DNA from: Candidatus Binatia bacterium
GTDB lineage: Bacteria; Desulfobacterota; Binatia; Bin18
Assembly (NCBI GenBank): GCA_963664395.2
Contig: OY761159.2
Location: 2,112,001-2,176,000 of the forward strand
Reading direction: 5' to 3'
Length of the DNA stretch: 64,000 nucleotides
The notes beneath the pieces were generated by a model. That model ran no database searches. It had not been told where the DNA came from and worked only from the letters and a program-made list of their open reading frames with translations. Both the position numbers and the translations under genes were made by a program. Positions 10,136-64,000 of this stretch are shown here, one piece after another (positions within the stretch are counted from its first letter, which is position 1; each line of letters opens with the position of its first letter).

Positions 10136-11330
10136 CTAGCGGCATCTTGGCTGGGACTCTCCTCCTCCCTCAGACTCGCGCCAGCTCGCGCACCAAGACC
10201 TGCAAGGATTGGGCATTATACGCCAAAAATGGTCAATATAGGGCAGGGCGGCCTTCATGCCCTGGGCGCGCGGTTCAAAGCTGGCGGCGCCGTACATGGG
10301 ATTGATCCAGACCACGCTGCGCACGCGTCGCCGCAGGGCGCGCATTTCGCGTTCAATGATCTCGGTGCGGCCGCTGTCATAGCCGTCACTGATAATAACG
10401 GCCCCCGTTGAGCGGGCCGAGCCTTCACGCAGAACACTCCGGTTCAACTTGGTGAGTGCTCCGCCGATATCCGTGCCGCCGGACCAGTGGCGGACCGTCT
10501 CGCCGACCTGCTGCAAGGTGTGTTGCACCGAGCGGCGGCGCAGCACGGACGTGATCTCAGTGACAGCCGTGCTGAAAACCACCGTGCGCGCGTTCTTGAG
10601 CTCCTTCTGAATCCCCAGCATGAGCTGCAAAAGAAACGGATTAAACGCATCCATGGAGCCACTCACGTCGCACAACATCGCACAACAGGACGAGGCGAGT
10701 CTTGCGTACGCGGCGCTGGACCCGGGCGAGTTCAACCATATCCATGCCGTGCCGCATATTACGCCGGAGTAAGCGTCGCAGGTCTATCCGCCGGCCGCGT
10801 GGGGACGGTTTGAGACGCCGGCTGGGGCGGGTGGCGAGACGCCTGGCTAGGGCACGGACGATGTGTTCGATGGGGGGCGCTGCCTCATCCCAACGCGCCG
10901 TCAGGTTCAGGTCGCGCTGGGTCTCCTGTGCACTGGTATCTTCAAGCTGGCCAATAATGTCCTGGTGGGCCTCCTGCAAGCCCTGGTCGAAGTCGCCGCG
11001 GAGCAACTCGGTCTGCACGCCTATGCGGTAGCCTGCGTTCTCCGCTTCCCCGTACCAGTAGGCCTTGAACACCCGGTCAAATCGTTGTTCTGCCGCTTGA
11101 CTGCTGGCCAGATTCGTCCGCAGGGCGAGGCGGAAGTCGTCCTCATTGACAAACTGAATACTACGCAGGGAGCGGGCGACATCAATGACGCGGCCTGGGG
11201 TCACACCGAGTTGCGCCGCCTTGGCTAATCGACACAGCTCCAGCGTGCGTGTGAGCAGCGTCTCGGGTAGCTGACTCAGAGCGGAGGGGGCTTCTTTGGG
11301 GGGTTCCGCTGGAGGCGTATCCCCACTCAC
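10136..11330 (-). pseudogene. CoxE-like VWA-domain protein, frameshifted
   Basis: RRIDLRRLLRRNMRHG, LCDVSGSM, WSGGTDIG, IISDG and WINP motifs split over two ORFs. A 10-bp tandem duplication (TCGCACAACA at 10668-10687) breaks the frame, and a second shift near 10225 hides the natural end ...AYNAQSLQVLVRELARV. Confidence 0.85.
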
Positions 11331-17078: not shown

Positions 17079-18440
17079 ATGCCTGGACATCTTCTCCTGG
17101 TCGAAGACGAAGCGAATATGGCCAAGATGCAGACCAAGATTCTGCAACGTAAAGGCTATACGGTAGAAGCCGTCTGTCATGGCCAAGCAGCACTCCAGGT
17201 GCTTGGCCAGACAAATTTTGACGTCGTCATCACTGACCTCAAGATGCCGGTCATGGATGGGATGCAACTCCTGGGCGAGATGCGGGCGCGCTCCTATGAG
17301 TGTCCGGTGATTGTCCTGACCGGCTACGGCACAATTGAAAGCGCGGTTGAAGCCATGCAGTCCGGAGCGGCGGATTATCTCACCAAACCCTGCAACCCGG
17401 ATGAGCTGCTCCTCAAAGTCGAGAAGCTGGTTGAAACACGTCGTCTCCGCCAAGAGGTGGCGCAACTCCGGCACGAGGTACGGAGCTATAAGCGCTTTGG
17501 TGAACTCATCGGACACAGTGCGGCCATGCGTCGCCTGTACGCCACTATTGGCTCAGTCAGCAGCAATAAAAGTACGGTGCTCATCACCGGAGAAAGCGGG
17601 ACCGGCAAGGAACTTGTGGCACGCACAATTCACCTTAAAGGACCGTGGGCCGGTCAGCCATTTCTCGCCCTCAACTGTGGCGCCATGTCTGAGACCCTGC
17701 TTGACAGCCAACTCTTTGGCCATAAGCGGGGCGCTTTTACCGGAGCCATTGCGGATCACGACGGCGTGTTCCAAGCGGCCAGCGGCGGCACCCTGTTCTT
17801 GGATGAAGTGGCGGAAATTCCGCTGGCGCTCCAGGGCAAATTTCTGCGCGCCATTCAAGAGCGGGAAGTCACGCCGTTAGGGGCCAGCCGCCCGATCAGG
17901 GTCGATGTCCGCATCATCGCGGCGAGCAATACCAACCTCGAACAGGCCCTCGCGGCTGGAACATTTCGGAAAGATTTATTCTATCGCCTGAATGTTGTCC
18001 CCATAGATATCCCGCCGCTCAAGGAACGGCGGGATGACATCCCCCTGCTGGTCGATCACCTCGTTGCGGTGTTCAGCACCGCATACAAGGTCCAACCAAA
18101 ACGCTTGACGGCCGAGGCCATGGACAAGCTTGTTGCGTATCCGTGGCCGGGGAATGTGCGTGAGTTACAAAATGTGATTGAGCGCCTGTTCGCATTACAT
18201 CACGGGCAAGAGATTACCCATGCCGACCTGCCGACTCCTATTAGCGGGTTTGCGCACTCCGAACCACATTTTGAGGCGTGGGCGGACATGCCTTCCTTAG
18301 CCGCTATGGAACGGGCTCTCATCCTGGCAGCCCTGCGTCGGGGACACGGCAACAAAAACGAAGCCGCGCGCCTGCTCAAGATTGACCGCCAACGCCTGTA
18401 TCGGAAGATGGAGAAGTATCAGCTCGAGAGCGGAGACTAA
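17079..18440 (+). CDS. Sigma54-dependent NtrC-family response regulator
   Basis: Receiver (DLKMP), GESGTGKE, GAFTGA, WPGNVREL, Fis-type HTH. Confidence 0.95.
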   Translation: MPGHLLLVEDEANMAKMQTKILQRKGYTVEAVCHGQAALQVLGQTNFDVVITDLKMPVMDGMQLLGEMRARSYECPVIVLTGYGTIESAVEAMQSGAADYLTKPCNPDELLLKVEKLVETRRLRQEVAQLRHEVRSYKRFGELIGHSAAMRRLYATIGSVSSNKSTVLITGESGTGKELVARTIHLKGPWAGQPFLALNCGAMSETLLDSQLFGHKRGAFTGAIADHDGVFQAASGGTLFLDEVAEIPLALQGKFLRAIQEREVTPLGASRPIRVDVRIIAASNTNLEQALAAGTFRKDLFYRLNVVPIDIPPLKERRDDIPLLVDHLVAVFSTAYKVQPKRLTAEAMDKLVAYPWPGNVRELQNVIERLFALHHGQEITHADLPTPISGFAHSEPHFEAWADMPSLAAMERALILAALRRGHGNKNEAARLLKIDRQRLYRKMEKYQLESGD

Positions 18441-51014: not shown

Positions 51015-51632
51015 ATGACAGGCTATGCTGAAGTTCCCCGGCTCGGTATCGGCGGACCAGTCGGCTCGGGGAAGACAGAGCTGATTGAACACGTGGTGCC
51101 GTATCTTCAGGGGCAGGGAAAACAGCTCGCGGTTATCACCAATGACATTCTGACCCAGGAAGACGCCCAACGCCTGCGCAGTCGCGGCTTCCTCTCCCCG
51201 GACCGCATTGTCGGCGTTGAGACCGGCGCCTGCCCACACACGGTTATTCGCGAAGATCCGACCATGAATCTGGAAGCAGTCCGCCGGCTGGAGGAACAGT
51301 TCCCTGCCCTGGATCTCATTATCTTAGAGAGTGGCGGGGACAATCTGGCGTCAACGTATTCTCCGGAACTCGCCGACGCCTTTGTCTTTGTCATCGACGT
51401 TGCCGGGGGCGACGACATTCCACGCAAGCGGGGGCTGGGGATTACCCGCTCAGACCTGCTGGTTATCAACAAGGTCGATCTTGCTCCGCATGTCGGAGCA
51501 AATATTGAGGTGATGACCCAGGATGCACGTCAGGCGCGTGGTACGCGGCCCGTTCTTCTCACCAACTGTAAAACAGGGATGGGGATTACGGACGTGGGCG
51601 AGTGGATTGAACGCGAATTACTCTTTGTCTAG
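51015..51632 (+). CDS. ureG: Urease accessory GTPase UreG
   Basis: [27 protein letters not shown]. Confidence 0.96.
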
Positions 51633-51645
51633 TGCTCTCTCCCCC

Positions 51646-52596
51646 ATGCCAGTGTCTGCGCATGACGCCTCCCGGCCGGGCCTCTCTCTTGATGCCGCCT
51701 TCTGGCCGCGCTCGTTTCAGGCCTATCTGTCTGACACACTCGATCAACGCCCGGCTGGTTCGGCTGGCAAGTCCGGCGCGTGCAAGCTGACCTTTGCAGC
51801 AGAGTCAGGAAAAACCCATCTTCAGCGCTCGTTTGTTTCCCATCCTTTCCATCTGACCCGTCCCTGGTATTTGGACCCGGCCTTGCCCGGTATGGCGGTG
51901 GTCTACGTCCAAACACCCGCGGGCGGACTAATTCAGGGCGATCGGGCAACGCTCCGGTTCGATCTGGGCGACGCGGCCCAAGTCCATATTACCAATCAGG
52001 CCGCAGAGAAGATTCACTCTATGACTGCCAACTGCGCACTGCAAAGCGTCTCGTTTGTTTTGGACGCAGGGGCCTATGCGGAGTATTGTCCCGAGCCCAT
52101 TATTCTCTTTCCCCGCGCGCGTTTCGGCCAGCAACTCCACGTCCAACTCGGCCGACAGGCGACCTTTTTCTTTTCCGAGATCTTTCTCATTCGTGGGGAC
52201 ATGACGCGAGAACCGTTTGAGGCACTCTCTACCAGCCTGAGCGTCACTGATGCTGCCGGCGCCCTACTCATACGAGAACACGGAGTCGTCCTCCCACTCC
52301 AGCAGCGCCTCACTGGCCCTGGCGTCCTGGGTCGCTATCACGTCTGGGGCCAAGCCGTCCTCGTTGGCCGATCGGTGACCGAGAGCTGGGCACGAGAAAT
52401 CCAAGGAAAGCTTCAAGAGGAATTGTTGCCTGACACAGCTCTCGTGGCCGGCACGACTGTCCTCCCAGAGGAATGCGGAATCTGCGTGAAAGTAGCAGGG
52501 ACAAGCGTTCCAGCGGTTCGACGGGTATTACGCCGAGCCTGGCACGGGCTGTGCCGGCGCCATCTCGGTGTTCCCGCACCAGACCTACCAAAATGA
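51646..52596 (+). CDS. ureD: Urease accessory protein UreD/UreH
   Basis: TPAGGLIQGD, TNQAAEKIHSM, PEPIILFP.ARF.Q; start at ATG 51646. Confidence 0.88.
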   Translation: MPVSAHDASRPGLSLDAAFWPRSFQAYLSDTLDQRPAGSAGKSGACKLTFAAESGKTHLQRSFVSHPFHLTRPWYLDPALPGMAVVYVQTPAGGLIQGDRATLRFDLGDAAQVHITNQAAEKIHSMTANCALQSVSFVLDAGAYAEYCPEPIILFPRARFGQQLHVQLGRQATFFFSEIFLIRGDMTREPFEALSTSLSVTDAAGALLIREHGVVLPLQQRLTGPGVLGRYHVWGQAVLVGRSVTESWAREIQGKLQEELLPDTALVAGTTVLPEECGICVKVAGTSVPAVRRVLRRAWHGLCRRHLGVPAPDLPK

Positions 52597-52597
52597 G

Positions 52598-52659
52598 GAA
52601 CGGAGGCCACGCATGCTGCGCATCAGTCATCGTCTCGGGAATGTCCATCAGGATTCCGA
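52598..52659 (+). repeat. Orphan copy of the ureE RBS and first 16 codons (partner at 63507-63568)
   Basis: GAACGGAG...ATG MLRISHRLGNVHQDS versus MLRVSHHLGNIHQDS. Confidence 0.9.
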
Positions 52660-52679
52660 AGGGGTAGTATGACGACGGA

Positions 52680-55193
52680 ATGAACGAAGCCACCGCCCGT
52701 ATCAAAATCAACAAGCTGCTCGAAGCAGCCGGCTGGGGTTTCTTTGCCGACGGCGACCAACCTGCCAACATCCGTCTTGAGCCAAGCGTTACGATAAAGG
52801 CGTCCGATCTCGACGCGCTTGGTAACGACTTCGATAAAACCGCTAAGGGCTTTATTGACTTTCTGCTGCTCGATACCAAGGGCTTCCCGCTCATCGTGCT
52901 GGAGGCCAAAGCCGAGGACAGGAATCCCCTGGTCGGCAAGGAGCAGGCGCGTAAATACGCTCGCTCGCTGAACTGCCGTTTCGTTATGCTCTCCAACGGA
53001 AATCTGCACTACTTCTGGGACCTGGAGCGCGGTAATCCCTACCTCATCACTACCTTTCCCACACCGGACTCGGTGGCCGGCTATGCGAGTGCCTCACCCG
53101 ACCCGCAGCGTCTGGTCAATGAACAGGTCAACGACGACTATATCGTCCTCACCCAGCGTCTCGGCTACGCATCCGAGGCAGCCTGGAAGAACGAAGACGA
53201 GCGCCCCGGCTTCATCCAGGCTAACAGACTTCGTTTTTTGCGGCCCTATCAACTGAGAGCCGTATACGCCCTGCAACGCGCGGTACACCAGGGCAAAGAC
53301 CGCTTTCTGTTCGAGATGGCGACCGGCACCGGCAAGACGCTCACCGCCGCAGCGGTCATCAGGCTATTCCTGCGCTCTGCCAACGCTCGGCGCGTGTTGT
53401 TTCTGGTGGACCGCCTGGAACTGGAGGAGCAGGCCAGAAAGGTTTTTGCGGCCCTGCTGTCCGCGGACTTCCAGACGGTCATTTACAAGGAGAAGCGTGA
53501 CGACTGGCGGCGGGCCGAGATCGTCGTCAGTACCGTTCAATCTCTGCTGTTCAATAACAAATACCAACAGCTTTTCTCGCCGACGGACTTTGACTTGGTG
53601 ATCTCCGACGAGGCGCACCGCTCGATTGGCGGCAATGCTCGGGCGGTATTCGACTATTTCGTTGGCTACAAGCTCGGTCTGACCGCCACGCCCCGCGATT
53701 ACTTACGGAGCTTCGACCAGACCAAGCGCACGACGCGGGACCCGCGTGAGGCCGAGCGTCGGCTGCTGCTGGACACCTATCGTACTTTCGGCTGCGAGAG
53801 CGGACAGCCAACCTTTCGCTACTCACTGCTCGACGGTGTCAGGGAGGGCTTTCTGATCAACCCCACGGTGGTGGACGCGCGGACGGAAGTCACCACCCAA
53901 CTCCTCTCCGAAGAGGGCTTTGTTGTGTCGTTCACCGAGGGCAGCGGTGAGGATCAGCAGGAAGCGTACAAGCAGCGCGAGTTCGAGAAACGCTTCTTTT
54001 CCGAAGCCACCAACCAACTTTTCTGTAAGACTTTTCTTGAGAACGCGCTACGCGACCCGATCAGCGGAGAGATCGGCAAATCCATTATCTTTGCCGTCAG
54101 CCAGCACCACGCGGCCAGGCTGACGCAAATCCTCAACCAGATGACCGAGCGTATGTTTCCCGGCAAGTACCAGTCCGATTTCGCCGTACAGGTTACCTCG
54201 CAGATACCCGACGCCCAGCAGTTCACCATCAACTTTGCCAACAACAACCTGATCGGCTCGGGCAACTTCCTGCCCGACTACAAGACCGGCAAGGCCCGTA
54301 TCTGCGTCACGGTCGGCATGATGACGACCGGGTACGACTGCACCGATATCCTGAATCTCGGCATGTTCCGGCCTATCTTCTCACCCACCGATTTCGTCCA
54401 GATCAAGGGACGGGGCACGCGCAAGCACGATTTTCGCGACCAACTTTTCGACATCGGCCTCAAGGACGCCGTCACCCAGCCACACAAAACCGCTTTCAAG
54501 CTGTTCGACTTCTTCGGCAACTGCGAATACTTCGAGGACGAGTTCAACTACGACGAAGTCCTCAAGCTGCCTCGACCTCGGGCTCAGGGGAACGGCGACG
54601 GCCCGCAACCCTACGGAACTTACGAGCATCTGGGCCGCGACATCCTCGAAGAAATTGCAGAAGAAACCATCGGCCTGGAGGGGATGAGGATAGACCGGAT
54701 GTTCTTCGACCGGTTCGCGGACGCAGTGCGACAAGACGAGACCATCGCGCAGGCCGTCGAAGCCGGCCAGTGGGACCGCGTTATGGACTACATCAACCGC
54801 GAAGTCTTCGACAAACCCGAGGAGTACTATACTCTTGCCAAACTGCGCAAAGCTGCCGCCGTGGACCGCCGCCTGACCCTGCGTGAAATTCTGGAAAAGG
54901 TTTTTGACATCATCCCGCGCTTCAAACCCAAGGACGAACTGCTGGAAGAAGAATTCACCAAGTTTGTCGCCGACCATACCCCGCCACGGGCTGACTCCAT
55001 TGCGGCTATCAAGGCCTACTTCAAAGCATACGCCACCGACGGCTACACTCGTGACATCATCGACACCCGGCAGTTCTCCAGGCTGGCCACCTCTCCGGTC
55101 TTTTCCATTGGCGACTATCGGGCCGTGCCGGAGAAATATCGCGCGATCATTCCCGAGTACGTGAAGGACTACGTGTCGTTGAACCAGTTCTGA
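52680..55193 (+). CDS. hsdR: Type I restriction endonuclease subunit HsdR
   Basis: IDFLL...LEAK nuclease, MATGTGKT, DEAHRS, LTATP, QIKGRGTR. Confidence 0.92.
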   Translation: MNEATARIKINKLLEAAGWGFFADGDQPANIRLEPSVTIKASDLDALGNDFDKTAKGFIDFLLLDTKGFPLIVLEAKAEDRNPLVGKEQARKYARSLNCRFVMLSNGNLHYFWDLERGNPYLITTFPTPDSVAGYASASPDPQRLVNEQVNDDYIVLTQRLGYASEAAWKNEDERPGFIQANRLRFLRPYQLRAVYALQRAVHQGKDRFLFEMATGTGKTLTAAAVIRLFLRSANARRVLFLVDRLELEEQARKVFAALLSADFQTVIYKEKRDDWRRAEIVVSTVQSLLFNNKYQQLFSPTDFDLVISDEAHRSIGGNARAVFDYFVGYKLGLTATPRDYLRSFDQTKRTTRDPREAERRLLLDTYRTFGCESGQPTFRYSLLDGVREGFLINPTVVDARTEVTTQLLSEEGFVVSFTEGSGEDQQEAYKQREFEKRFFSEATNQLFCKTFLENALRDPISGEIGKSIIFAVSQHHAARLTQILNQMTERMFPGKYQSDFAVQVTSQIPDAQQFTINFANNNLIGSGNFLPDYKTGKARICVTVGMMTTGYDCTDILNLGMFRPIFSPTDFVQIKGRGTRKHDFRDQLFDIGLKDAVTQPHKTAFKLFDFFGNCEYFEDEFNYDEVLKLPRPRAQGNGDGPQPYGTYEHLGRDILEEIAEETIGLEGMRIDRMFFDRFADAVRQDETIAQAVEAGQWDRVMDYINREVFDKPEEYYTLAKLRKAAAVDRRLTLREILEKVFDIIPRFKPKDELLEEEFTKFVADHTPPRADSIAAIKAYFKAYATDGYTRDIIDTRQFSRLATSPVFSIGDYRAVPEKYRAIIPEYVKDYVSLNQF

Positions 55194-55415
55194 ACTGTGA
55201 TTGAATGGGATTTTTGGGATTGATGGGATGCAGAAGGAGCATAAGTTTCGGAGTTGACCGGCCAGATCATCGGGTGTGCTATGACGGTGCATTCCGCGCT
55301 GGGCAATGGGTTTCAGAACGAGTCACCAACAAGAAGTTCAACCAAAAAAATCAACGCAATCCCAAAATCCCCTAAATCCTGTTAATCCTACCAATCCCAC
55401 AAATCACAGTTCAGA
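55189..55415 (+). mobile_element. Inverted-repeat-bounded element with an internally deleted GxxExxY-family gene remnant
   Basis: 14-bp perfect terminal IR TCTGAACTGTGATT / AATCACAGTTCAGA; subterminal GGGATT/AATCCC iterations; internal ELTGQIIGCAMTVHSALGNGFQ. Confidence 0.65.
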
Positions 55416-55417
55416 CT

Positions 55418-58009
55418 ATGTTAGACACCACCACCAAACGCCGGATTGACACCGCCCGCGACCTCCTCGTCGGCAAGGTGCCTGACCCCAAGAGTCAGGT
55501 CGAACAGATTACCATTGCGCTCATCTACAAGTTCATGGATGACATTGACGCCGAGAGCGAAGAGTTCGGCGGCACGCGTACCTTCTTCGCCGATGACTTC
55601 GCCCGTTACGGCTGGGCCAAACTGATGTACTCCGGCCTGGGCGGAAACGAGATTCTCAATCTTTACGCCGAGGCCATTACCCGAATGCCGGAGAACCCCG
55701 GTATCCCGCCGCTGTTCCGCGATATTTTCAAGAACGCCTATCTGCCCTACCGCGACCCCGAGACCCTGCGCGGCTTTCTCAAGGTGATTGACGAGTTTAC
55801 CTACGACCACTCCGAACGCCTGGGTGATGCCTTCGAGTATCTGCTGTCCGTACTCGGCTCTCAGGGCGATGCCGGGCAGTTCCGCACCCCACGGCACATC
55901 ATCGACTTTATCGTGGCCGTCATTGACCCCAAAAAGAATGAAACCATCCTCGACCCGGCCTGCGGTACCGCCGGATTTCTGATCTCCTCGTACAAACACA
56001 TCCTGAAGGCAAACACCGACGCCGACGGTCACAGCACTTTGACCCCGGACGAAAGGGGCCGATTGGCAACCAATTTTCAGGGTTACGACATCTCGCCCGA
56101 CATGGTGCGCCTGTCGCTGGTCAATATGTATCTGCACGGCTTTGTCGCCCCGCATATCTTCGAGTACGACGCCCTGACCAGCCAGGAGCGTTGGAACGAG
56201 TACGCCGACGTGATTCTGGCCAACCCGCCGTTCATGTCGCCCAAAGGCGGCATCCGGCCCCACAATCACTTCTCGGTGCAGTCCAAACGCAGCGAAGTAC
56301 TGTTTGTAGACTACATGGCCGAGCATCTGACGCCCAACGGCCGCGCTGGCATCATCGTGCCCGAGGGCATCATTTTTCAGAGCCAGAACGCTTACAAGCA
56401 ACTGCGCAAGATGCTGATAGAGGACTATCTGGTGGCGGTGGTATCGCTGCCGGCGGGTGTGTTCCAACCCTACTCCGGCGTCAAGACTTCGATTCTGATT
56501 CTGGACAAGGTGTTAGCCAAGAAAGCCGACCGCATCGCCTTCTTCAAGGTAGAAAACGACGGCTTCGGCCTGGGGGCGCAACGCCGCCCGATTGACAGGA
56601 ATGACTTGCCGCAGGTGCAAAAGGAGCTGGGCGAATATCTTGGAAGGCTGCGGGCTGGCGAATCGGTGGACGATTTCCAGCCAGCGTTGACGGACCGCGT
56701 AGCCGAACCAGGGGCGGAGTACACGAAGAGCGAATCGACACACGGGCTCATCGCCGAGAAGGAGAAGATTGCTGCGAGTGGAGAGTATAATCTGAGCGGG
56801 GAGCGGTATCGGGAGAATCGGGTACGCAATCACGCGTTCCCTTTAGTTTCCATTGGAGATTCAGAACTTTTCCGTGTCGAAAGTGGTGGTACGCCAAAAT
56901 CCGATGTGAAGGAATACTGGAGTGGCAGCATTCCTTGGGCGACGTTGGTTGATTTGCCTGCAACCAATTTTATCACCGAGATTAGGGCTACTCAGCGTAC
57001 CATTACCGAACTTGGCTTAAATAAGTCCTCAGCGAAGCTGATTCCAGAAAATTCTGTCATCGTTTCGACCCGGGCGACTATTGGGAGAATCGCCATCAAC
57101 CGTATACCACTAGCGACCAACCAGGGGTTCAAGAACGTCGTTATCAAGGACCTGAACAAAGTTCTCCCCGAATATGTCGCACTCACGTTGACAAAGCTTG
57201 TGCCCACGATGGAAGCCCAGGCGAGCGGTGGCACCTTCAAAGAGATTTCCAAGTCGAGGTTCTGTGGGCTACAAATCCCCCTACCGCCGCTGGAAGTGCA
57301 GCGGGAAATTGTGGCCGAGATTGAAGGCTACCAAAAAGTGATTGACGGGGCGCGGATGGTAGTGGAGAACTATCGGCCTCATATTGTAGTTGATCCTGAG
57401 TGGCCGATGATTCCGCTTAGTGATGCGTGTGAGTTAATCATGGACGGGACTCACTTTTCTCCGAAGAATATGGAACAAGGCGCACGGCTGTACCTCACCT
57501 CCAAGAATGTTAGAGAAAACCACCTTGACCTTTCCAAAGTCAGTTACGTGACTGAAGCAGACCACAAATCCATTTATGCGCGCTGCCCAGTTCAAAAGGG
57601 AGATGTTCTCTACGTCAAGGATGGAGCGAACACGGGTCTTACGGCCATAAACACTCTGGATGAAAAATTCTCACTACTCTCAAGTGTCGCAGTCTTACGG
57701 GGAAAGCGGAATTACCTTGATAACCAATTCTTGTGTCTCTTTCTGAATACCCCCGACGGTCGGAGCAGGTTACTTTCCATGATGTCAGGCGTAGCTATCA
57801 GAAGGCTGACGTTGACGAAGATCAATCAGGCTCAGATTCCTTTGCCACCTATTCAAGACCAGAAGAGAATAGTTCAGGAGATCGAAGCCGAGCAAGCTGC
57901 CGTCGACGCCAACCGTGAACTGATTGAGCGATTTGAGAAGAAGATTCAGGCGGCGGTGGGGCGGGTGTGGGGAGAAACCGAAGTCGTAGGTCGGACTAGC
58001 TCGGCGTAA
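55418..58009 (+). CDS. Fused type I HsdM-HsdS (N6 MTase plus two target-recognition domains)
   Basis: GQFRTPRH, LDPACGTAGF, ANPPF; then SGGTP...IPLPPLEVQREIV and a second TRD ending IPLPPIQDQKRIV. Confidence 0.92.
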   Translation: MLDTTTKRRIDTARDLLVGKVPDPKSQVEQITIALIYKFMDDIDAESEEFGGTRTFFADDFARYGWAKLMYSGLGGNEILNLYAEAITRMPENPGIPPLFRDIFKNAYLPYRDPETLRGFLKVIDEFTYDHSERLGDAFEYLLSVLGSQGDAGQFRTPRHIIDFIVAVIDPKKNETILDPACGTAGFLISSYKHILKANTDADGHSTLTPDERGRLATNFQGYDISPDMVRLSLVNMYLHGFVAPHIFEYDALTSQERWNEYADVILANPPFMSPKGGIRPHNHFSVQSKRSEVLFVDYMAEHLTPNGRAGIIVPEGIIFQSQNAYKQLRKMLIEDYLVAVVSLPAGVFQPYSGVKTSILILDKVLAKKADRIAFFKVENDGFGLGAQRRPIDRNDLPQVQKELGEYLGRLRAGESVDDFQPALTDRVAEPGAEYTKSESTHGLIAEKEKIAASGEYNLSGERYRENRVRNHAFPLVSIGDSELFRVESGGTPKSDVKEYWSGSIPWATLVDLPATNFITEIRATQRTITELGLNKSSAKLIPENSVIVSTRATIGRIAINRIPLATNQGFKNVVIKDLNKVLPEYVALTLTKLVPTMEAQASGGTFKEISKSRFCGLQIPLPPLEVQREIVAEIEGYQKVIDGARMVVENYRPHIVVDPEWPMIPLSDACELIMDGTHFSPKNMEQGARLYLTSKNVRENHLDLSKVSYVTEADHKSIYARCPVQKGDVLYVKDGANTGLTAINTLDEKFSLLSSVAVLRGKRNYLDNQFLCLFLNTPDGRSRLLSMMSGVAIRRLTLTKINQAQIPLPPIQDQKRIVQEIEAEQAAVDANRELIERFEKKIQAAVGRVWGETEVVGRTSSA

Positions 58010-58056
58010 TCCGACAAGGGAGGTGGGGTGGGTGAAGGCTGAAGTGGAGACGGGGG

Positions 58057-58260
58057 ATGCCAAAAGTTAGAGACGCGATTAGGCTCATAGAGCGAGAGGG
58101 CTGGGAATTGGTCCGTACCCGTGGAAGTCACAGGCAATATCGCCACTCCAAAAAATCGGGAACCGTTACGATAGCAGGCCGAATGAGTAAGGACCTTGCG
58201 CCTAAAACTTGGGCGAGTATTCTCAAACAAGCAGGAATAGACAGAGGAGAATCGCTGTGA
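58057..58260 (+). CDS. hicA: HicA toxin
   Basis: GWELVRTRGSHRQYRH..K.G.VTIAG. Confidence 0.92.
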   Translation: MPKVRDAIRLIEREGWELVRTRGSHRQYRHSKKSGTVTIAGRMSKDLAPKTWASILKQAGIDRGESL

Positions 58261-58487
58261 AATACGCCATCCTCATTGAAAGAACCGACAACGGCTACTC
58301 TGCCTATGTGCCCGATTTACCCGGTTGTATCGCCGCCGCAGATACAAAAACCGCAGTGGAAGAACTGATCCGCGAAGCTATCAGCCTCCACCTCGAATCC
58401 CTCCACGAACACGGCGACCCAATTCCTGAACCGCACACAACCGCTGCTCTCATTGAGGTCCAACCTTTCTCCGATTCGTTTGTTTGA
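58257..58487 (+). CDS. hicB: HicB antitoxin
   Basis: GTG start overlapping the hicA stop; YSAYVPDLPGCIAA...EAISLHLE. Confidence 0.9.
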   Translation: MKYAILIERTDNGYSAYVPDLPGCIAAADTKTAVEELIREAISLHLESLHEHGDPIPEPHTTAALIEVQPFSDSFV

Positions 58488-58562
58488 GATGGCGGGACGG
58501 GCGCCAGTCTTACGGTCCTGCTGGGGAGGTTGGGTGACGCCTTCGGCTCACCCAACCTACGG

Positions 58563-58703
58563 GCTAAAATTCCGATGTCGAATCTTGAAACCCAAGGTGC
58601 CATTGTCGCAGAAATTGAAGCCAAACAATCGCTAGTCAACGCCAACCGTGAACTGCTTGAACGATTTGAGAAGAAGATTCGGGCGGCGGGGGGGCGGAGA
58701 TAA
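58563..58703 (+). pseudogene. Orphan hsdS 3'-end copy (no. 2)
   Basis: AKIPMSNLETQGAIVAEIEAKQSLVNANRELLERFEKKIRAAGGR versus native AQIPLPPIQDQKRIVQEIEAEQAAVDANRELIERFEKKIQAAVGR. Confidence 0.9.
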
Positions 58704-58761
58704 GACAAAGGGCGCGGACTAACCTCAAACCGGATTATTTTGGGAAAGCGGGCAGGAACGC

Positions 58762-60468
58762 CTACGAATCCGCAGACGAGGATTTTTGCTTCTCGTAATC
58801 ATCCAAGGCTGCCACAATACGATCTAACAATTTACCGAATCCTGAAAAATCAATCTTGTCGGCACTTGGTCTAACTACCTTTTCGGCAAAAACGGTCTTT
58901 CCGTACGTATCGTCTGTGTTGTGTTTCTTCGAGGGGTCAAACTTCTTTCCATCTATAGGAATTTTGAGCAACTTTGGGCCAAACAAATCTTCTATGCAGG
59001 ATTTTGAATCCGTGCCGTTCTCTGGTGTCTTTACGAGATAAAGATTCTTGTGAAGATGGTAGAATAATTCCGAAACTTCGTTTGTTATATTAAGGCTATA
59101 ATTTTCTTTTACAACGCTGAAGATACTCTTAGCGCCGTCGTCGTTGTCGGTTAGGATGATCACCGGATGGGCAAGCGGTGCATGTTTGAAGGAGGCGATG
59201 ATGATTTTGTACTTTGCGATAAGGCGGCTGATATCACCTGTACCACCACCAAGCTGAAGGACTTGGTAAATTGTTTGCGAGTATCTCATGAAGCGGACAG
59301 TACTTGAGAAGCTGCCGTTTACAAGCTCACCTAATTGTGGATGGTAATCCGTTAGTTTTTTGATTGCTGCACGTAGATAAACGATATCGGTTTTTCCTTC
59401 TGTCACAATCAAGGGTTTTTCTAACGCCACAAAGTGCTTATAGAAGAGAAATTTTTTGTACAACATCCGAGCCGCGGTTGGTGTTTTCTTTTTTTCAACT
59501 TCCTCCCTTAGATCGGAGCGATCCTTTATGTAATGTATGTGACTGAGAATGCCCTCAATTTTATTTAAGCCTTTCACGGAGGTGTCAGGGGTGGATACAT
59601 AATAGCTCCCGGTCGAGAACAGCTTATGACAAATCGCGCGTGCGGTCCGATAGTATTCCGATCTGATGTTGACTTTTTCGTTGACTATTAAACCGGTCGT
59701 CACTTGGCGCGACCCACGCCACTGCATCCGTGTTTTGCTGGCGTTTATTTTGAAGCCGGCTCTATGAATCTCCTTTACAAGTTGCGAACCAAGTTCCCAG
59801 GCCGAGAGTCTTTCAGGAATTGGTTTTGCTAAAGCTGTAGGAAAATCCTTACGGTTCGTCGAAAAGGTGATGTCATCAGCATAGCGCGAATAAGTGCACT
59901 TGTTTTTCTTGGCGAATCGAGCAAGACGCACATCCAGTATATGTCCAAGCAAGTTGGATATTATCGGGGAACATGGACTGCCCTGCGGCAATTCGTTCTT
60001 ATGACACGCAATTTGCGCAATGACTGTCGCGACTTTCTCATTTAGCTCAAAACGTTTGTCTTTTATGAAGAAGCCTCGAACACGTCCGAAATTGAATGAA
60101 GGGAAAAAGTCTTGGAGATCCAGGTTCAGTACATAGCGGCGACGTTTATGCACAGAAGCATTGGTGAAGATTGAGCAGGAGCGCGCAAAGCCATGAGCGA
60201 GCGGATGGTGGGTGGGGCCGGTTTTCTCAAATTCGGCGACGCATCTGTAGAGTACGTCCGCCAATCGTCTCTGTAGCATTTTCAACCGACGTTCGGGCGC
60301 GTTGATTAGCCGCTTCCCACCGTTGTGTTTTGGGATTTCAAAGGAGTGGTACTTTTCTGCTTCTGGCAACTGATACAGTAGATATGAAACGGTCTTAGGT
60401 TGTACACCGAGAATATGACCGACATCCTTCAATGTTCGGGCTGCCCGCAGCTTCTCCAAGTCGGTCAT
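58762..60468 (-). CDS. Retron reverse transcriptase fused to a TOPRIM nuclease (Ec67-like, type I-C)
   Basis: NASVH, LDLQDFFPS, LPQGSPCSP, YSRYADD, VTGL retron motifs; C-terminal EGKTD...DNDD TOPRIM. Confidence 0.93.
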   Translation of the reverse strand: MTDLEKLRAARTLKDVGHILGVQPKTVSYLLYQLPEAEKYHSFEIPKHNGGKRLINAPERRLKMLQRRLADVLYRCVAEFEKTGPTHHPLAHGFARSCSIFTNASVHKRRRYVLNLDLQDFFPSFNFGRVRGFFIKDKRFELNEKVATVIAQIACHKNELPQGSPCSPIISNLLGHILDVRLARFAKKNKCTYSRYADDITFSTNRKDFPTALAKPIPERLSAWELGSQLVKEIHRAGFKINASKTRMQWRGSRQVTTGLIVNEKVNIRSEYYRTARAICHKLFSTGSYYVSTPDTSVKGLNKIEGILSHIHYIKDRSDLREEVEKKKTPTAARMLYKKFLFYKHFVALEKPLIVTEGKTDIVYLRAAIKKLTDYHPQLGELVNGSFSSTVRFMRYSQTIYQVLQLGGGTGDISRLIAKYKIIIASFKHAPLAHPVIILTDNDDGAKSIFSVVKENYSLNITNEVSELFYHLHKNLYLVKTPENGTDSKSCIEDLFGPKLLKIPIDGKKFDPSKKHNTDDTYGKTVFAEKVVRPSADKIDFSGFGKLLDRIVAALDDYEKQKSSSADS

Positions 60469-60487
60469 AGACCAGTTCTCAAGAGAA

Positions 60488-60634
60488 GGCTTACAGGCAC
60501 TCCTATGCGAAACGAAACCCTAGAGAACGATATCTAACGATATCTAGCGTTGTTCAAGGATGACCAGGGAGCACGCGCGCCCTGACATTCTGTCTTATAT
60601 CGCGATTGCGCGATAACAAGTCTGCCTGTAAGCC
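60488..60634 (-). ncRNA. Retron msr-msd non-coding RNA
   Basis: 12-bp perfect a1/a2 inverted repeat GGCTTACAGGCA (60488-60499) / TGCCTGTAAGCC (60623-60634); G right after the 5' arm; two short msr stems and a longer msd hairpin; about 20 nt upstream of the RT ATG. Confidence 0.85.
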
Positions 60635-60684
60635 AGCGCACACCGTGGCATATCGGTGCTGGAATAGCAAGAAAAATAGAAAAG

Positions 60685-60779
60685 GTCGTCGAGATTGAAG
60701 TTGACAAGCCCTGGTCAACGCTAACCGCGAACTGATTAAGCAATTTGAGGAGAAGGTTCGGACGAGTGGGGGGGCATAG
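60685..60779 (+). pseudogene. Orphan hsdS 3'-end copy (no. 3, one frameshift)
   Basis: VVEIEV/-QALVNANRELIKQFEEKVR. Confidence 0.85.
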
Positions 60780-60830
60780 CGAGGGCAAGGTCAATCGGGT
60801 AGAATTTTCACTTACGAGGAGGGGAAAGTC

Positions 60831-61028
60831 ATGTCTGAAAGAGCCGAGACAGAAAGGGTCTCAGATGATTATCTGAGGACATTAGAACGTGTCAAAAAGC
60901 AATACCAGCAATACGTGGAAGTGAGCGAGCTTTACAAATTGCCTGTCCAAAAGGAAGAGGAAATTATCCAATATCAATCTCCAAGTCCAGAGCACCCTCT
61001 GACGACAAATACAATTCGTATCAAGTAA
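60831..61028 (+). CDS. Small hypothetical protein upstream of the Clp/SDH protease
   Basis: Strong GAGGAGG RBS; 11-nt gap to the next gene. Confidence 0.65.
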   Translation: MSERAETERVSDDYLRTLERVKKQYQQYVEVSELYKLPVQKEEEIIQYQSPSPEHPLTTNTIRIK

Positions 61029-61039
61029 GTGAAATAGTC

Positions 61040-62019
61040 ATGGCTTCATGGAGCGAACTCCTAGAACTGCTAAAAGCTCAAAGAGACCCTGTCTGGCTTG
61101 ATAGCAAACTAAAAGAACATTTGAGCGCCATCTCAGGGCGTCGTAACGGTGCCGCCGTCATCTTTTACGCCTCGGCTTTTCTGCAAAAAACGCCGACAAG
61201 GTGGCCATCACCAGAGAAGATATCAATGGCTTCATGAACGCGCTTTACGAAGCACCGACCGATAGAGGTCTCGTATTGATCCTTCATACTCCTGGTGGCG
61301 ACCCGAATGCTGTTGAAAGTATCGTTGAGTATCTTCATTCCAAATTCAATTATCTTGAGGTCATTGTTCCATACCTGGCTATGTCCGGCGGCGCGATGAT
61401 AAGTCTTGCGAGCGATCAACTAACGCTCGGTAAGCAGAGCCAACTTGGGCCGATTGACCCTCAACTTGTCATTGGTAACAAAACACATTCGGCCAGGGCG
61501 ATTCAGGAAGGATTTAATAAGGCAAGAGAGGATATTGAAAGCGATACGAAATTAGCGCATCTCTGGGCACCTATTTTACAAAATATGGGACCTTCGCTTT
61601 TCTTGGAAGCTGAGAAAGCTTTGTCATACAGCAAAGAGTTGGTGGCAAACTGGCTCATGAAAAGGATGCTCAAAGGTATACGCGACGAGACAGAAAGAAA
61701 GAGAAAAGCCGATACCATTGCGGCATATTTTAATGCTGAAGATATTCCTGACTACGGCCAAGTGCATGTCCATGGCCAGAGGATTGGAGCGGTCAAGCTT
61801 AGGGAACTTGGGCTTAATCTGCAATTTTTTGAGGATGACCAAGCTCTGCAGAATGATATTTTAACGGCATATCACTTGATGACCTTGATTTTTGAAATGA
61901 CGACTTCCCTCAAGTTCATTGCCAGCGATAGAGGAAAAATGTGGGTCAAACAAGAACAGCAGATTCTTGCCCCAGCATCCCCTCCTGTCCCTCAACAACC
62001 TCCCTCAATTATCCCCTGA
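61040..62019 (+). CDS. ClpP/SppA-like (SDH family) serine protease, split by a 1-nt shift in an A6 run
   Basis: LILHTPGG, AMSGGAMISLA...SQLGPIDPQ, HG.RI; frame changes at CAAAAAAC (61184-61191), and one extra A would join 61040-61237 to 61201-62019. Confidence 0.8.
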
Positions 62020-62784
62020 TTCCCAGACCTTGTCTGAAAACTGGACGATATGTTCACCTTCCCGTAATGGCTCGCCGGCGAGGCTGTCGAGCCAGTTCAT
62101 ACCCTCGACATAAACATCGTCATAACGGGCATCTTTTACGGGGTTAATCAGTTTGTGATCTTTGCGTTCTCTGTTTTTATACCGCGCTCGTAATGCCCGC
62201 ATTCGCTCTTTGAATTGCTTCTTTTTCTTGGCCGATAAGCCGTCCATTCTCAGCGGTGTCGGAACAGGCTCATTCATTGAGATGTCCTGGGTGACGACTG
62301 TAAAGTCCAAAAACTCATTAGGCGCGGCAGATAACATGGGTTCCGTCCTATAAACGTAATGCAGCAGGCTCTGCGTGTCTTGCCCGAATCGCCGCACATC
62401 TTCTTTCAGTCCCGAAGTTATCGCAAATGAGAGTTGGTTCCCTATCTCTTCTAACTGCTCTTCATCACTCAGAGACCAACGAACCCAATCCTGCCTCTCT
62501 TCATAGTTGCTCTCAAAAGACCGTCTCTCCGCGTCGATAGCGCTGAGTGCAGGCTCAATACGCGCGTAAACCGATTGGGACCACGGACCGAATTTGTAAA
62601 ATTGCTACCCTGTCCCGGTAAAGGTAACGCCGTTGTTTCGTTTCGCATGGAAAAGGTCGGCCAAATACACATACTTAATCAGGTGAATTGGTCCGAGCTG
62701 GCGGTCTAAGAATTCATCCTGCTCTCCAGCAACCAGCAACGCATACTGGAGCAGCAAGTCAACACGGGAGGGGGCCACTGGCAT
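62005..62784 (-). pseudogene. Panacea/SocA (DUF4065)-like antitoxin with an internal amber stop
   Basis: Manual translation from ATG 62784: ...LGPIHLIKYVYLADLFHAKRNNGVTFTGTG*QFYKFGPWS...LLHYVYRTEPM; TAG at 62607-62605 where Trp is expected; the frame continues into ORF 62005-62397. Confidence 0.75.
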
Positions 62785-62893
62785 TACTTCGACTCGAAGG
62801 GCTGAGAATCAGGTCTATTTACGGTTCTCCTGGGACAGCAAGCATACCGGAATTGTCGGAGCGCGCCTACCCGTATGTGGGCTCCTCCCATAT

Positions 62894-63025
62894 AAGATTG
62901 AAGCCGAACGAACTCTTGTCACCGCTAATCGTGAACTGATTGAACGATTTGAGAAGAAAATTCGGGAAGCGATTGGGAGGGTGTGGGGAGAGGCCGAAGT
63001 CGTAGGTCGGACTAGCTCGGCGTAA
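62894..63025 (+). pseudogene. Orphan hsdS 3'-end copy (no. 4)
   Basis: KIEAERTLVTANRELIERFEKKIREAIGRVWGEAEVVGRTSSA-stop. Confidence 0.9.
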
Positions 63026-63072
63026 TCCGACAAGGGAGGTGGGGTGGGGAGAGGCTGAAGCGGAGACGGGGG

Positions 63073-63276
63073 ATGTCAAAAGTTAGAGACGCGATTAGGC
63101 TCATAGAGCGAGAGGGCTGGGAATTGGTCCGTACCCGTGGAAGTCACAGGCAATATCGCCACTCCAAAAAATCGGGAACCGTTACGATAGCAGGCCGAAT
63201 GAGTAAGGACCTTGCGCCTAAAACTTGGGCGAGTATTCTCAAACAAGCAGGAATAGACAGAGGAGAATCGCTGTGA
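63073..63276 (+). CDS. hicA: HicA toxin (duplicate)
   Basis: Identical to 58057-58260 except residue 2. Confidence 0.92.
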   Translation: MSKVRDAIRLIEREGWELVRTRGSHRQYRHSKKSGTVTIAGRMSKDLAPKTWASILKQAGIDRGESL

Positions 63277-63479
63277 AATACGCCATCCTCATTGAAAGAA
63301 CCGACAACGGCTACTCTGCCTATGTGCCCGATTTACCCGGTTGTATCGCCGCCGCAGATACAAAAACCGCAGTGGAAGAACTGATCCGCGAAGCTATCAG
63401 CCTCCACCTCGAATCCCTCCACGAACACGGCGACCCAATTCCTGAACCGCACACAACCGCTACCCTCATTGAGGTCTGA
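63273..63479 (+). CDS. hicB: HicB antitoxin (duplicate)
   Basis: Near-identical to 58257-58487 with a shorter tail. Confidence 0.9.
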   Translation: MKYAILIERTDNGYSAYVPDLPGCIAAADTKTAVEELIREAISLHLESLHEHGDPIPEPHTTATLIEV

Positions 63480-63521
63480 CCCATCTGCGATTCGTCTGTT
63501 TGAGCAGAACGGAGTGCAAAT

Positions 63522-64000
63522 ATGCTGCGCGTCAGTCATCATCTCGGGAATATTCACCAGGATTCCGACCTCGCCGCTCAGGTCACGCGCTGGGAGCACG
63601 CGCACCAACTGGAAGAAGTGACCCTGAACGAACGGGAGGCGCAGAAGAGTCGGCTTCGCCTACAGACCTCGACCGGCCAAGAGCTGGGGCTCGTCTTGCC
63701 CCGTGGCACAGAAATCACGGATGGGGACGTCTTTGCCTTCACCGATAGGGAAGGCGGCCTGTTAGTCCACCTCGCTCTTCAGGAGGTCATGGTGCTGACG
63801 CTTCGCCCAGGACTGCCCTTGGGCAAGCAACACCACTGGCTGGTGCGCCTGGGCCATGTGCTGGGCAACCAGCACTGGCCGGTCGCGAGCGTCAACGAGG
63901 CGGTCCTGGTGCCGGTCAGCCTCGACCGGGCGGTGATGGAAACCGTTCTGCGTACCCATCATCTCCTGGATCAATTTACGGTTCGGTATGAGCGGCGTTC
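63522..64000 (+). CDS. ureE: Urease accessory protein UreE (runs off the window)
   Basis: Manual translation: MLRVSHHLGN...QKSRLRLQTSTGQELGLVLPRGTEITDGDVF...LGHVLGNQHWP; not in the ORF track. Confidence 0.88.
   Translation, partial: MLRVSHHLGNIHQDSDLAAQVTRWEHAHQLEEVTLNEREAQKSRLRLQTSTGQELGLVLPRGTEITDGDVFAFTDREGGLLVHLALQEVMVLTLRPGLPLGKQHHWLVRLGHVLGNQHWPVASVNEAVLVPVSLDRAVMETVLRTHHLLDQFTVRYERR

Follow-up and report, generated by a model that had tools for sequence, protein, structure and literature searches.

The 64,000-nucleotide stretch analysed here (the window; positions 2,112,001 to 2,176,000 of contig OY761159.2 of a Candidatus Binatia bacterium) carries a type I restriction-modification (R-M) locus in which the 3' end of the specificity gene hsdS recurs among the defence genes that follow it. 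We read this locus as a hypervariable defence island on a type I R-M anchor, in which the orphan tails are old hsdS ends, i.e., copies of the second conserved region (CR2), that were moved together with their cargo by homologous recombination, and we give this reading a probability of roughly 60%. Put most simply, the orphan copies continue the alternation of conserved and variable blocks of hsdS past its stop codon, in the order CR2, cargo, CR2', cargo, CR2''. The reading is carried by the repeats themselves, by the colinearity of tails and cargo with live genes elsewhere, by chimeric tails, by imports and deletions, and by recurrence in a second phylum.

The anchor gene is a fusion of hsdM and hsdS. 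Its specificity part has the layout described for hsdS in an account of defence hotspots (PMC12707154), namely target recognition domain 1 (TRD1), CR1, TRD2 and CR2, with hsdM at amino acids (aa) 1-465, TRD1 at 466-617, CR1 at 618-664, TRD2 at 665-820 and CR2 at 821-853. One live tail and three orphan tails, each at a cargo border, were found in the window; below, relatives are coded G0xx (genomes of the genus or order), N61-N63 (metagenome-assembled genomes, MAGs, of Nitrospirales) and Lxxx (loci or contigs), with WIN for the window locus.

55418 to 58009, plus strand: fused hsdM-hsdS gene, 863 aa, with N6_Mtase (Pfam, 8.1e-48), TRD1, CR1, TRD2 and CR2 (Methylase_S, 2e-35, two stretches).
57878 to 57975, plus strand: tail1, which is the live CR2; of G002 type in its 5' and middle parts and of tail4 type from about 57950-57972 on.
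58567 to 58703, plus strand: tail2, a full-length orphan CR2 from 'IPM...' to the stop; open frame, with an indel in the terminal G run.
60681 to 60779, plus strand: tail3, a truncated orphan CR2 with a 1-nt frameshift; 5' part of G016-orphan type, 3' part continuous with the protease cassette.
62894 to 63025, plus strand: tail4, a truncated orphan CR2 from 'KIEAE' together with a REP-A hairpin; frame open to the stop.

The original prediction had placed four same-strand copies of the hsdS tail at cargo borders, and repeat search, nhmmer and BLAST all bear this out. The repeat search returned four copies of an 87-nt unit on the same strand, at 57878-57964 (the reference), 58611-58697 (84% identity), 60690-60776 (61% ungapped, a low value because of a 1-nt indel) and 62894-62980 (77%). 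With tail1 as the query, nhmmer recovered all four, at 12830-13009, 13564-13698 (E 2e-15), 15678-15769 (E 1.2e-8) and 17893-18024 (E 2.4e-24) in a coordinate system (ext) to which 45000 is added to obtain window positions. A BLAST search of the whole 5.04-Mb genome with the 171-nt tail gave 31 matches at E<=10, among which the strong ones (E<=2e-20) were tail1, tail4 and tail2 only, tail3 being under the sensitivity of this search; none of the strong matches lay outside the island locus. The remaining 28 (E>=0.0165) were 15-33 nt long, and many fell in the REP-like final 30 nt of the tail. Tail matches occur in 13 of 28 genomes of the genus, and each genome has all of its matches in a single locus. 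The predicted order of the cargo was likewise found by Pfam, PADLOC and open reading frame (ORF) analysis: tail1, hicAB, tail2, an RT-Toprim retron on the minus strand, tail3, orf65 with an SDH/ClpP-like protease gene and a Panacea gene on the minus strand, tail4, hicAB and ureE. The orphans are preceded by the REP-B element (tail2), the retron noncoding RNA (ncRNA) (tail3) and the Panacea 5' region (tail4), not by TRDs.

Comparison with relatives indicates that the orphan tails are former hsdS gene ends that are still attached to their own cargo. A check set in advance asked whether the combination of an orphan tail and its cargo exists elsewhere with the hsdS end still live, and four comparisons showed exactly this. 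Window positions 58602-60689 match the G016 live tail and retron at 85.2% over 2,133 nt, and 60691-62429 match the G022 live tail with orf65 and the protease gene at 85.8% over 1,752 nt. Between relatives, the orphan and DUF3644 gene of G008 are 91.6% identical over 849 nt to the live tail of G002 with the same gene, and the first orphan of G007 and its adjoining fragment match the live tail of G006 and cl36. A tree of 30 tails scatters the window copies: tail1 falls with the G002 live tail (97/99 support), tail3 with the G016 and G007 orphans, and tail2 groups with an orphan from Nitrospirales. Constraining the four window tails to be monophyletic costs 47.9 log-likelihood units and is rejected by the approximately unbiased test (p-AU 0.03); as had been proposed, the tails therefore derive from the ends of different hsdS alleles and not from a local duplication series. 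The accompanying statement that the copies differ at many codons while keeping the peptide was right on the first point and only partly right on the second, about half of the differing codons being non-synonymous. Over the 29 codons compared, tail1 and tail2 differ by 3 synonymous and 7 non-synonymous changes, tail1 and tail4 by 7 and 8, and tail2 and tail4 by 5 and 8.

Tails 1 and 3 appear to be chimeric, which points to crossovers within the tails. Window positions 57701-57972, i.e., TRD2 and the tail, are 92.6% identical to G002, and the cargo differs beyond; the 3' segment of tail1 is closest to the G027 live tail (29 of 35 columns), followed by tail4 and the G027 orphan (28 of 35 each). 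The 5' part of tail3 has the G016 orphan as its nearest relative (34 of 46 columns), and the junction between retron ncRNA and tail is identical in the window, G016 and G021. The 3' part of tail3 runs unbroken into the G022-type cassette; by columns its closeness to G022 is weak (17 of 35) because of indels, and the assignment is based on the continuous BLAST alignment. For tail4, the nearest copy is the G027 orphan (41 of 45 and 29 of 35 columns).

The same arrangement recurs in other genomes. The 18 loci of this hsd family comprise the window, 13 relatives, a remnant in G021 and three Nitrospirales MAGs found by pattern scan. At least one orphan tail is present in 11 of them, in Candidatus Binatia relatives as well as in the three Nitrospirales MAGs, always on the strand of the live gene: three in the window, two in G007, one each in G016, G027, G008, G014, G037 and G021, four (plus one live tail) in N61, one and a weak one in N62, and one in N63. 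Orphan tails were not detected in the other seven loci (G002, G006, G011, G013, G017, G018 and G022). Among 11 distinct loci from metagenomes, one (L089, of which L095 is an identical copy) combines a live tail with two orphans, which enclose a SIR2 gene, an FRG-TPR gene and a gene of unknown kind. Genomes differ in how many tail-delimited cassettes they have and in what order, as anticipated. Throughout the relatives the cargo is defence-like; a Pfam scan of 27 representative ORFs gave SIR2, TIR, AAA_15/21 with DUF3226, an OLD-like ATPase, AAA with DUF4435, DUF3644 with an REase-like domain, Schlafen/AlbA_2, NYN, PIN, a Tle1-like hydrolase and an HATPase_c_3 protein, the neighbouring ORFs of the last being Dcm- and Vsr-like as judged by eye.

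The comparisons further suggest that cargo turnover takes place mainly beside hsdS. Both flanks, hsdR and hsdM of G016 are 95-96% identical to those of G018, and the two genomes have a distal DUF3226-AAA pair in common, but they are unlike in TRD1, TRD2, the tail and all proximal cargo. This joint replacement agrees with the predicted coupling between specificity change and accretion of defence genes, though only as something that can happen: obligatory coupling of TRD2 and cargo was rejected, since the window and G002 have TRD2 in common and different cargo, and G022 and G007 have cargo in common and different TRD2. The protease cassette occurs in four upstream contexts, which are a live end (G022), a tail remnant of ~30 nt (G007), the retron (window) and AAA/DUF3226 genes (N62), and the upstream junctions all lie inside CR2. 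G007 carries a 23-codon Panacea 3' fragment on the protease cassette, with the junction seen in the window and in G022, and also an intact Panacea operon distally, as well as two SIR2 fragments that are 80.7% alike; imports, and not loss only, have therefore occurred. Deletions are equally plain: G021 retains hsdR aa 1-42, reverse transcriptase (RT) aa 1-53 and a tail, G025 has a scar of about 46 nt of hsdR between intact flanks, and the G006 hsdR is without aa 160-795.

Such deletions bring in the main rival, differential loss from longer arrays. In its pure form, the ancestor would have had one long array, or a few hsd loci in tandem, that decayed, the tails would be inert and the differences between genomes would all be differential deletions. 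We consider this unlikely. Pervasive deletion in G021, G025 and G006, the partly broken cargo of the window and the decay of the tails (the tail3 frameshift, strain indels at 58680 and 58687, and the 79% versus 85% identity described below) are what it would lead one to expect, but the duplicate, diverged Panacea and SIR2 fragments of G007 need import, and tails 1 and 3 are apparently chimeric. One cassette with different upstream neighbours and truncation points in two phyla, the presence of the island at two chromosomal sites, and the location of all junctions to older cassettes that keep any hsdS in the last ~140 nt of a 2.6-kb gene also speak against pure relics.

The original prediction saw in the tail a docking site. 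The orphan tails look like decaying, pseudogene-like by-products rather than maintained sites: tail3 is 79% identical to the G016 orphan compared with 85% for the adjoining cassette, and strain contigs show 9- and 16-nt insertions in the G run of tail2. We also considered whether the tails might serve in regulation and found no support for this. The scan of 57700-63600 gave 7 promoter-like sites (5.2 +/- 2.5 expected) and 5 terminator-like sites (6.6 +/- 2.1 expected), and none of either kind lay inside a tail.

The left ends of the orphans are ragged, starting at profile positions of about 2-7, 16-48 or 62-77. Full-length orphan CR2 copies are tail2, two in N61, that of N63 and one in L089; intermediate starts are seen in the second L089 orphan, G016, N62, tail3 and tail4, and starts at ~62-77 in eight cases. 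There is no exact shared core among the tails, and no recombinase domain was found by Pfam in the ORFs of the island. As predicted, no integrase lies in or near it: a genome search with PF00589 gave 5 matches, none within ~520 kb of the window and the nearest at about 523 and 618 kb. Ragged left ends, crossovers within tails and the lack of a nearby tyrosine recombinase argue for homologous over integron-like site-specific recombination. It is accordingly highly improbable, in our view, that the tail serves as an att site for a recombinase acting in trans, either by accretion as of integron cassettes or as in tandem islands at a gene 3' end. Direct repeats of a gene 3' end do separate small modules here, and the island is flanked by a 62-nt ureE repeat, as such a mechanism would have it, but the crossovers fall at varied tail positions, cargo lies on both strands and tail-to-tail identity is 61-84%. 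The label 'integron-like', used in the original prediction, thus survives as an analogy only, there being no attC-like fixed site.

Tails are border elements, as had been claimed, but not the sole ones. Two elements resembling repetitive extragenic palindromes (REP) and a repeat of ~240 nt also stand at borders.

57981 to 58020, plus strand: REP-A hairpin (GTAGGTCGGA...TCCGAC), which extends the hsdMS frame by 'VVGRTSSA' (about 10 codons).
58490 to 58566, no strand assigned: REP-B double hairpin abutting tail2, single copy in the genome.

A second REP-A copy lies at 63001-63036. Genome counts were taken from regular expression matches, of which REP-A has 27 genome-wide, with dozens of copies in each relative's genome, and not from blastn-short, which in the window's own genome gave 4 matches for REP-A and 1 for REP-B (itself). 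REP-B was aligned in 9 copies from 7 loci, each after a cassette. In DNA folding it gave z = -3.9 and -4.3, within an overall range of -3.1 to -4.3, and REP-A and REP-B together fold into a three-hairpin unit closed by a GTAGGT/ACCTAC stem. REP-A alone was not supported as a stable hairpin (57975-58045, z = +0.56). We also dropped the idea of a tRNA-like REP-A/REP-B composite, since nothing above chance came from Rfam, run on 52000-64000 and the G018 array, or from ARAGORN, run on that array. In G018, which has no orphan tails, REP-B-type copies of 80-118 nt separate cassettes (L034 8968-9082, 10943-11022 and 13024-13138), and a fourth match of 50 nt lies at L034 8892-8939. Long REP-B matches (77-118 nt) are located in the islands of G018, G002 and G027; short matches to the second hairpin (33-47 nt) occur elsewhere too, including in G012, which has no island. 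In the window as in G007, the hicAB pair occupies precisely the interval from REP-A to REP-B. The ~240-nt repeat was seen at module borders three times in G007 (L036 10896-11028, 14504-14760 and 15623-15860, two of them 95% alike), in G018 (L034 12825-13062) and in G006 (L033 minus 10860-11130, oriented 8772-9042).

Given these hairpins, REP-B, or REP-A and REP-B together, could be the true joints, moved in trans by a Y1/RAYT-like (REP-associated tyrosine transposase) or unknown enzyme with the tails as passengers. The regular position of REP-B after cassettes, its role as separator in G018, its long island-located matches, the placement of hicAB and the fold scores all lean this way. We nevertheless think it quite improbable: the only genome match to PF01797 (Y1 transposase) is weak (24.2 bits) and about 940 kb away, the GTTGGGT...ACCCAAC order of REP-B is the reverse of the attC R''/R' order, and the colinearity of tails and cargo with live genes would go unexplained.

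Under homologous recombination, DNA of a relative comprising the 3' part of hsdMS and its own cargo would recombine into the locus, with the left crossover in the conserved hsd block and the right junction in or beside the resident CR2. With the right junction in that place, the old tail and its cargo would therefore end up distal. Cargo between two tails could subsequently be moved, joined to other cassettes or deleted by RecA-type recombination between the tails. A dedicated recombinase would not be involved, and the orphan tails would be decaying by-products rather than selected sites. We infer the direction of these events and their dependence on RecA; the donor may have been joined by a linear double crossover, by a one-sided illegitimate join or as a circle. 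The predicted displacement of older cargo by an incoming tail and cargo would fit the data, with the qualification that deletion is at least as visible as accretion (G021, G025). A bolder formulation, which we put forward tentatively, is that hsdS CR2 may act as a portable homology arm, a recombinase-free counterpart of the integron, by which defence cargo is captured, stacked, reshuffled and passed on through host homologous recombination, even between Binatia and Nitrospirales, with TRD and cargo swaps using the same joints. In such a system, the REP-B hairpins may provide joints of a second class.

Several points weigh against recombination at CR2 as the full account. A deletion alone can make an orphan tail live, so tail and cargo colinearity gives no direction, and part of the variation between genomes may be differential loss from longer arrays (G021, G025). 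Homologous recombination alone leaves the first orphan and the truncated left ends unexplained, so that erosion at a later stage or an illegitimate step has to be added to the account; the join may have been illegitimate, or a circle may have brought in a partial tail. The tail segments compared are 35-46 columns long and the chimera calls thus depend on few sites, and in the tail tree 2 of 27 branches are starred. Many module borders do not lie at tails but at REP-A, REP-B, the ~240-nt repeat or the convergent protease/Panacea junction. Between genomes, cassettes are 85-92% identical, about as much as core genes (ureD/E/G 84-97% in amino acids; hsdR DNA 87-91%), so no event is demonstrably recent except homogenisation of hicAB. 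Finally, no strain-level structural variant was firmly seen in the Logan contigs of public runs, which, rather than reads, provide the within-species evidence, with one genome per species.

The same contigs bear on whether the array could be an assembly artefact, with strain variants joined at repeats, a danger that the original prediction had itself raised. The genome is of metagenome type, in 14 contigs with 5.4% contamination, and the hicAB#2 copy (63023-63432) has no separate bridge among the contig pieces listed, which would favour an artefact. The other junctions are bridged: an X6 contig of 3,646 nt covers 58416-62061 and another of 992 nt covers 62032-63023, both with 0 differences, an X9 contig covers 57000-58445 with 1 difference, and an X8 contig of 2,277 nt from another study covers tail2, retron, tail3 and orf65. 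Contigs with 0-1 differences hence span tail1-hicAB, the stretch from hicB through REP-B, tail2, retron and tail3 to the protease gene, and Panacea-tail4, and the same junctions are present in other genomes; an assembly chimera is therefore scarcely credible. Circle-type ('goes back') joints were absent from the 15 joints listed of 22 in contigs of public runs. Three skips resembling tail-to-tail joints, 57965>63046 (X10), 57378>62927 and 57384>58633 (both X8), each come from one short contig of a mixed metagenome with 30-35 nt on the shorter side, and we give them no weight because the two hicAB regions are near-identical.

The cargo modules of the window, for which PADLOC was run on the window's 10 ORFs only, are as follows.

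58057 to 58260, plus strand: hicA #1, toxin (Pfam HicA_toxin, 3.3e-19).
58257 to 58487, plus strand: hicB #1, antitoxin (Pfam HicB_lk_antitox, 2.3e-13, on ORF 58209-58487).
58762 to 60468, minus strand: retron RT-Toprim fusion, type I-C, 568 aa (PADLOC RT-Toprim_I-C, PDLC02966, 4.9e-228; Pfam RVT_1, 7.9e-21).
60470 to 60680, minus strand: putative retron ncRNA, with a 12-bp long-range inverted repeat, GGCTTACAGGCA / TGCCTGTAAGCC.
60831 to 61028, plus strand: orf65, a small ORF always 5' of the protease gene and kept in G007, G022 and N62.
61040 to 62019, plus strand: SDH/ClpP-like serine protease gene, frameshifted (Pfam SDH_protease, 1.2e-19).
62005 to 62784, minus strand: Panacea-domain gene, a single frame with one in-frame stop (TAG, 62605-62607).
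63073 to 63479, plus strand: hicA #2 (63073-63276) and hicB #2 (63273-63479), 100% identical to copy #1 over 58088-58447.

The hicAB pair has the usual toxin-antitoxin layout, with the GTG start of hicB #1 overlapping the stop of hicA (GTGA). Its two copies are 100% identical over ~360 nt (58088-58447 versus 63104-63463), with flanks at 67-93% and orthologues in other species at 87-91%, a pattern that would fit recent gene conversion or duplication between them. The RT-Toprim fusion is full length, residues 1-565 aligning to positions 6-558 of 568 in the PADLOC profile. In the putative ncRNA, the 12-bp pairing and hairpins are kept in all three sequences (WIN, G016 and G021), with compensatory change in 0 of 50 pairs, and Rfam on 52000-64000 gave no match to it. 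Contigs of 4/4 public runs skip ~99 nt within this region (60509-60609); these may be variant msd segments or related retrons of other organisms in the samples. For orf65, neither Pfam nor PADLOC returned a match. A -1 frameshift in an A6 run (61185-61190) interrupts the protease gene, which is intact at 326 aa in G007 and G022. The in-frame TAG makes the Panacea gene a pseudogene in the window; it lies where G027 has Trp, and the orthologues in G007 and G027 are 266-268 aa long, that of G027 (268 aa) matching SocA_Panacea at 1.1e-4 and 23.5 bits, under the cut-off of 25.7. Public-run contigs with 0 differences confirm both the protease frameshift and the Panacea TAG. In G007 and G027 the Panacea gene is followed by a 256-aa gene, cl21 (L036 16046-17546; L035 3124-3930), which has no Pfam match, is not present in the window and is a candidate toxin partner of the Panacea gene.

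The hsd island as a whole measures 10.8 kb (about 52660-63506) and lies between ureD (51523-52596) and ureE (from 63522), with hsdR first and the fused hsdM-hsdS next, as identified by Pfam and PADLOC.

52598 to 52659, plus strand: orphan ureE 5' end, comprising ribosome-binding site and first codons, at the left island border, a direct repeat of 63507-63568.
52680 to 55193, plus strand: hsdR, type I restriction subunit, 837 aa (Pfam ResIII, 2.8e-37, HSDR_N, HSDR_N_2 and Helicase_C; PADLOC REase_I, 6e-58).
63507 to 63568, plus strand: true ureE 5' end, right copy of the island-flanking repeat; ureE starts at 63522.

The gene products have the parts expected of a type I R-M system: an HsdR with an N-terminal nuclease region and a superfamily 2 (SF2) helicase motor, an N6-adenine methylase and a specificity part with two TRDs. 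Across the 13 relatives' loci, hsdM, CR1 and CR2 align to most (CR2 unaligned for G013 and G014), TRD1 of the window to G008 alone and TRD2 to G002 alone, which shows hsdS mosaicism of classical type I design in this hsd family. Single-TRD ('half') hsdMS alleles that end after one conserved region were observed in L030 (G008), L041 (G014), L087 (N63) and L089; in G008 and G014 the half allele is followed by cl15, a small four-helix-bundle-like gene, and then by the orphan CR2. In G037, a member of another family in the same order, the anchor gene is partly duplicated in tandem, with a broken extra hsdM upstream of the full hsdMS (L040 3693-4998 and 6916-9360).

The repeat search showed that the ureE 5'-end repeat flanking the whole island is 62 nt long with 84% identity, and the match to islands at the second chromosomal site begins at 52665, directly after its left copy. 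The orphan ureE fragment is also found in G002 and G006, and UreE orthologues of the relatives are 85-94% identical. This repeat is an 'orphan gene end' signature of the same kind as the tails, on the scale of the island, and suggests that the island entered through a single crossover in short homology or a similar event. Two chromosomal sites are occupied in the genus: the window, G002, G006 and G014 have the island between ureD and ureE, and G007, G008, G011, G016, G018, G022 and G027 have it at the second site, where G021 and G025 hold remnants. In G001, G004, G012 and G025, ureD and ureE adjoin directly.

Homologous recombination at the conserved regions of type I hsdS genes shuffles their TRDs, as in the type IC EcoR124/EcoDXXI hybrids and in the domain movement of S. 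aureus and H. pylori. The present locus has the same design of conserved and variable blocks, independent exchange of TRD1 and TRD2 among relatives and a crossover zone in CR2, but here CR2 copies past the stop codon bracket defence cargo other than hsd, and the swapped modules are whole genes instead of TRDs. Integron arrays consist of an integrase, IntI, and attI and attC sites with a fixed crossover point. Likewise, the island has small modules, mostly for defence or of toxin-antitoxin type, and a repeated element beside a fixed anchor, to which the newer modules apparently lie closer. It differs in that it lacks IntI next to the array (there is no recombinase domain in the island ORFs), attI, attC and a fixed crossover point, the repeats being decaying hsdS coding remnants with ragged left ends (attC order was judged from the consensus) and the cargo lying on both strands. 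Islands also stack at gene 3' ends, e.g., SCC (staphylococcal cassette chromosome) elements at rlmH/orfX and islands at the 3' ends of tRNA genes or bacA. Tandem islands of this kind with repeated copies of the gene end have been described (PMC4057263); each insertion restores the gene 3' end and shifts the old one distally, giving direct repeats and modular excision. Those islands use an element-encoded recombinase and an exact att core, neither of which is seen here, where tail identities are 61-84%, start points vary and an integrase is absent.

Phase-variable hsdS loci are described as invertons or shufflons with silent hsdS copies (PMC7394358, PMC7672463). They too have extra partial hsdS genes that lie beside a live type I system and recombine with it. 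Those copies are inverted, bear TRDs, usually come with a recombinase and switch specificity reversibly, whereas the tails described here are TRD-less, all on the strand of the live gene and without a recombinase, and it is the cargo content that changes. Defence genes at type I loci are reported for the E. coli immigration control region, which is defence hotspot 36 at a type I R-M locus (PMC12707154), for TgvAB, embedded in the type I R-M locus of V. cholerae (PMC11411939), and for S. aureus, in which hsdMS and the neighbouring Avast are exchanged by lateral transduction plus recombination (PMC12829572). As in our island, a R-M anchor holds variable cargo, there is homologous recombination with conserved neighbours and no local integrase; direct orphan hsdS 3' fragments at cargo borders and chimeric tails are not mentioned in the sections of those accounts drawn on here. 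Already known, then, are TRD shuffling in type I systems, phase-variable hsdS, defence genes inside or beside such systems, and defence hotspots that lack an integrase. Direct orphan hsdS 3' fragments as borders of defence cargo were not described in the full-text literature that we searched, a body of main texts exclusive of supplements and subscription journals.

Integrase-free defence islands are common, and how systems accumulate in them has mostly been deduced from flanking core genes. The island described here itself displays the joints, which are relics of the conserved 3' block of its anchor gene, still attached to cargo and some of them apparently hybrid, and which recur in at least two phyla. 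They offer a concrete, testable route by which defence genes may accrete and be shuffled without an integrase, and would extend the modular recombination of hsdS beyond the gene itself. An orphan CR2 downstream of hsdS may, in addition, serve as a search key for cassette borders and for new defence candidates, such as orf65 with the SDH protease, the 505-aa cl41 and the 256-aa partner of Panacea.

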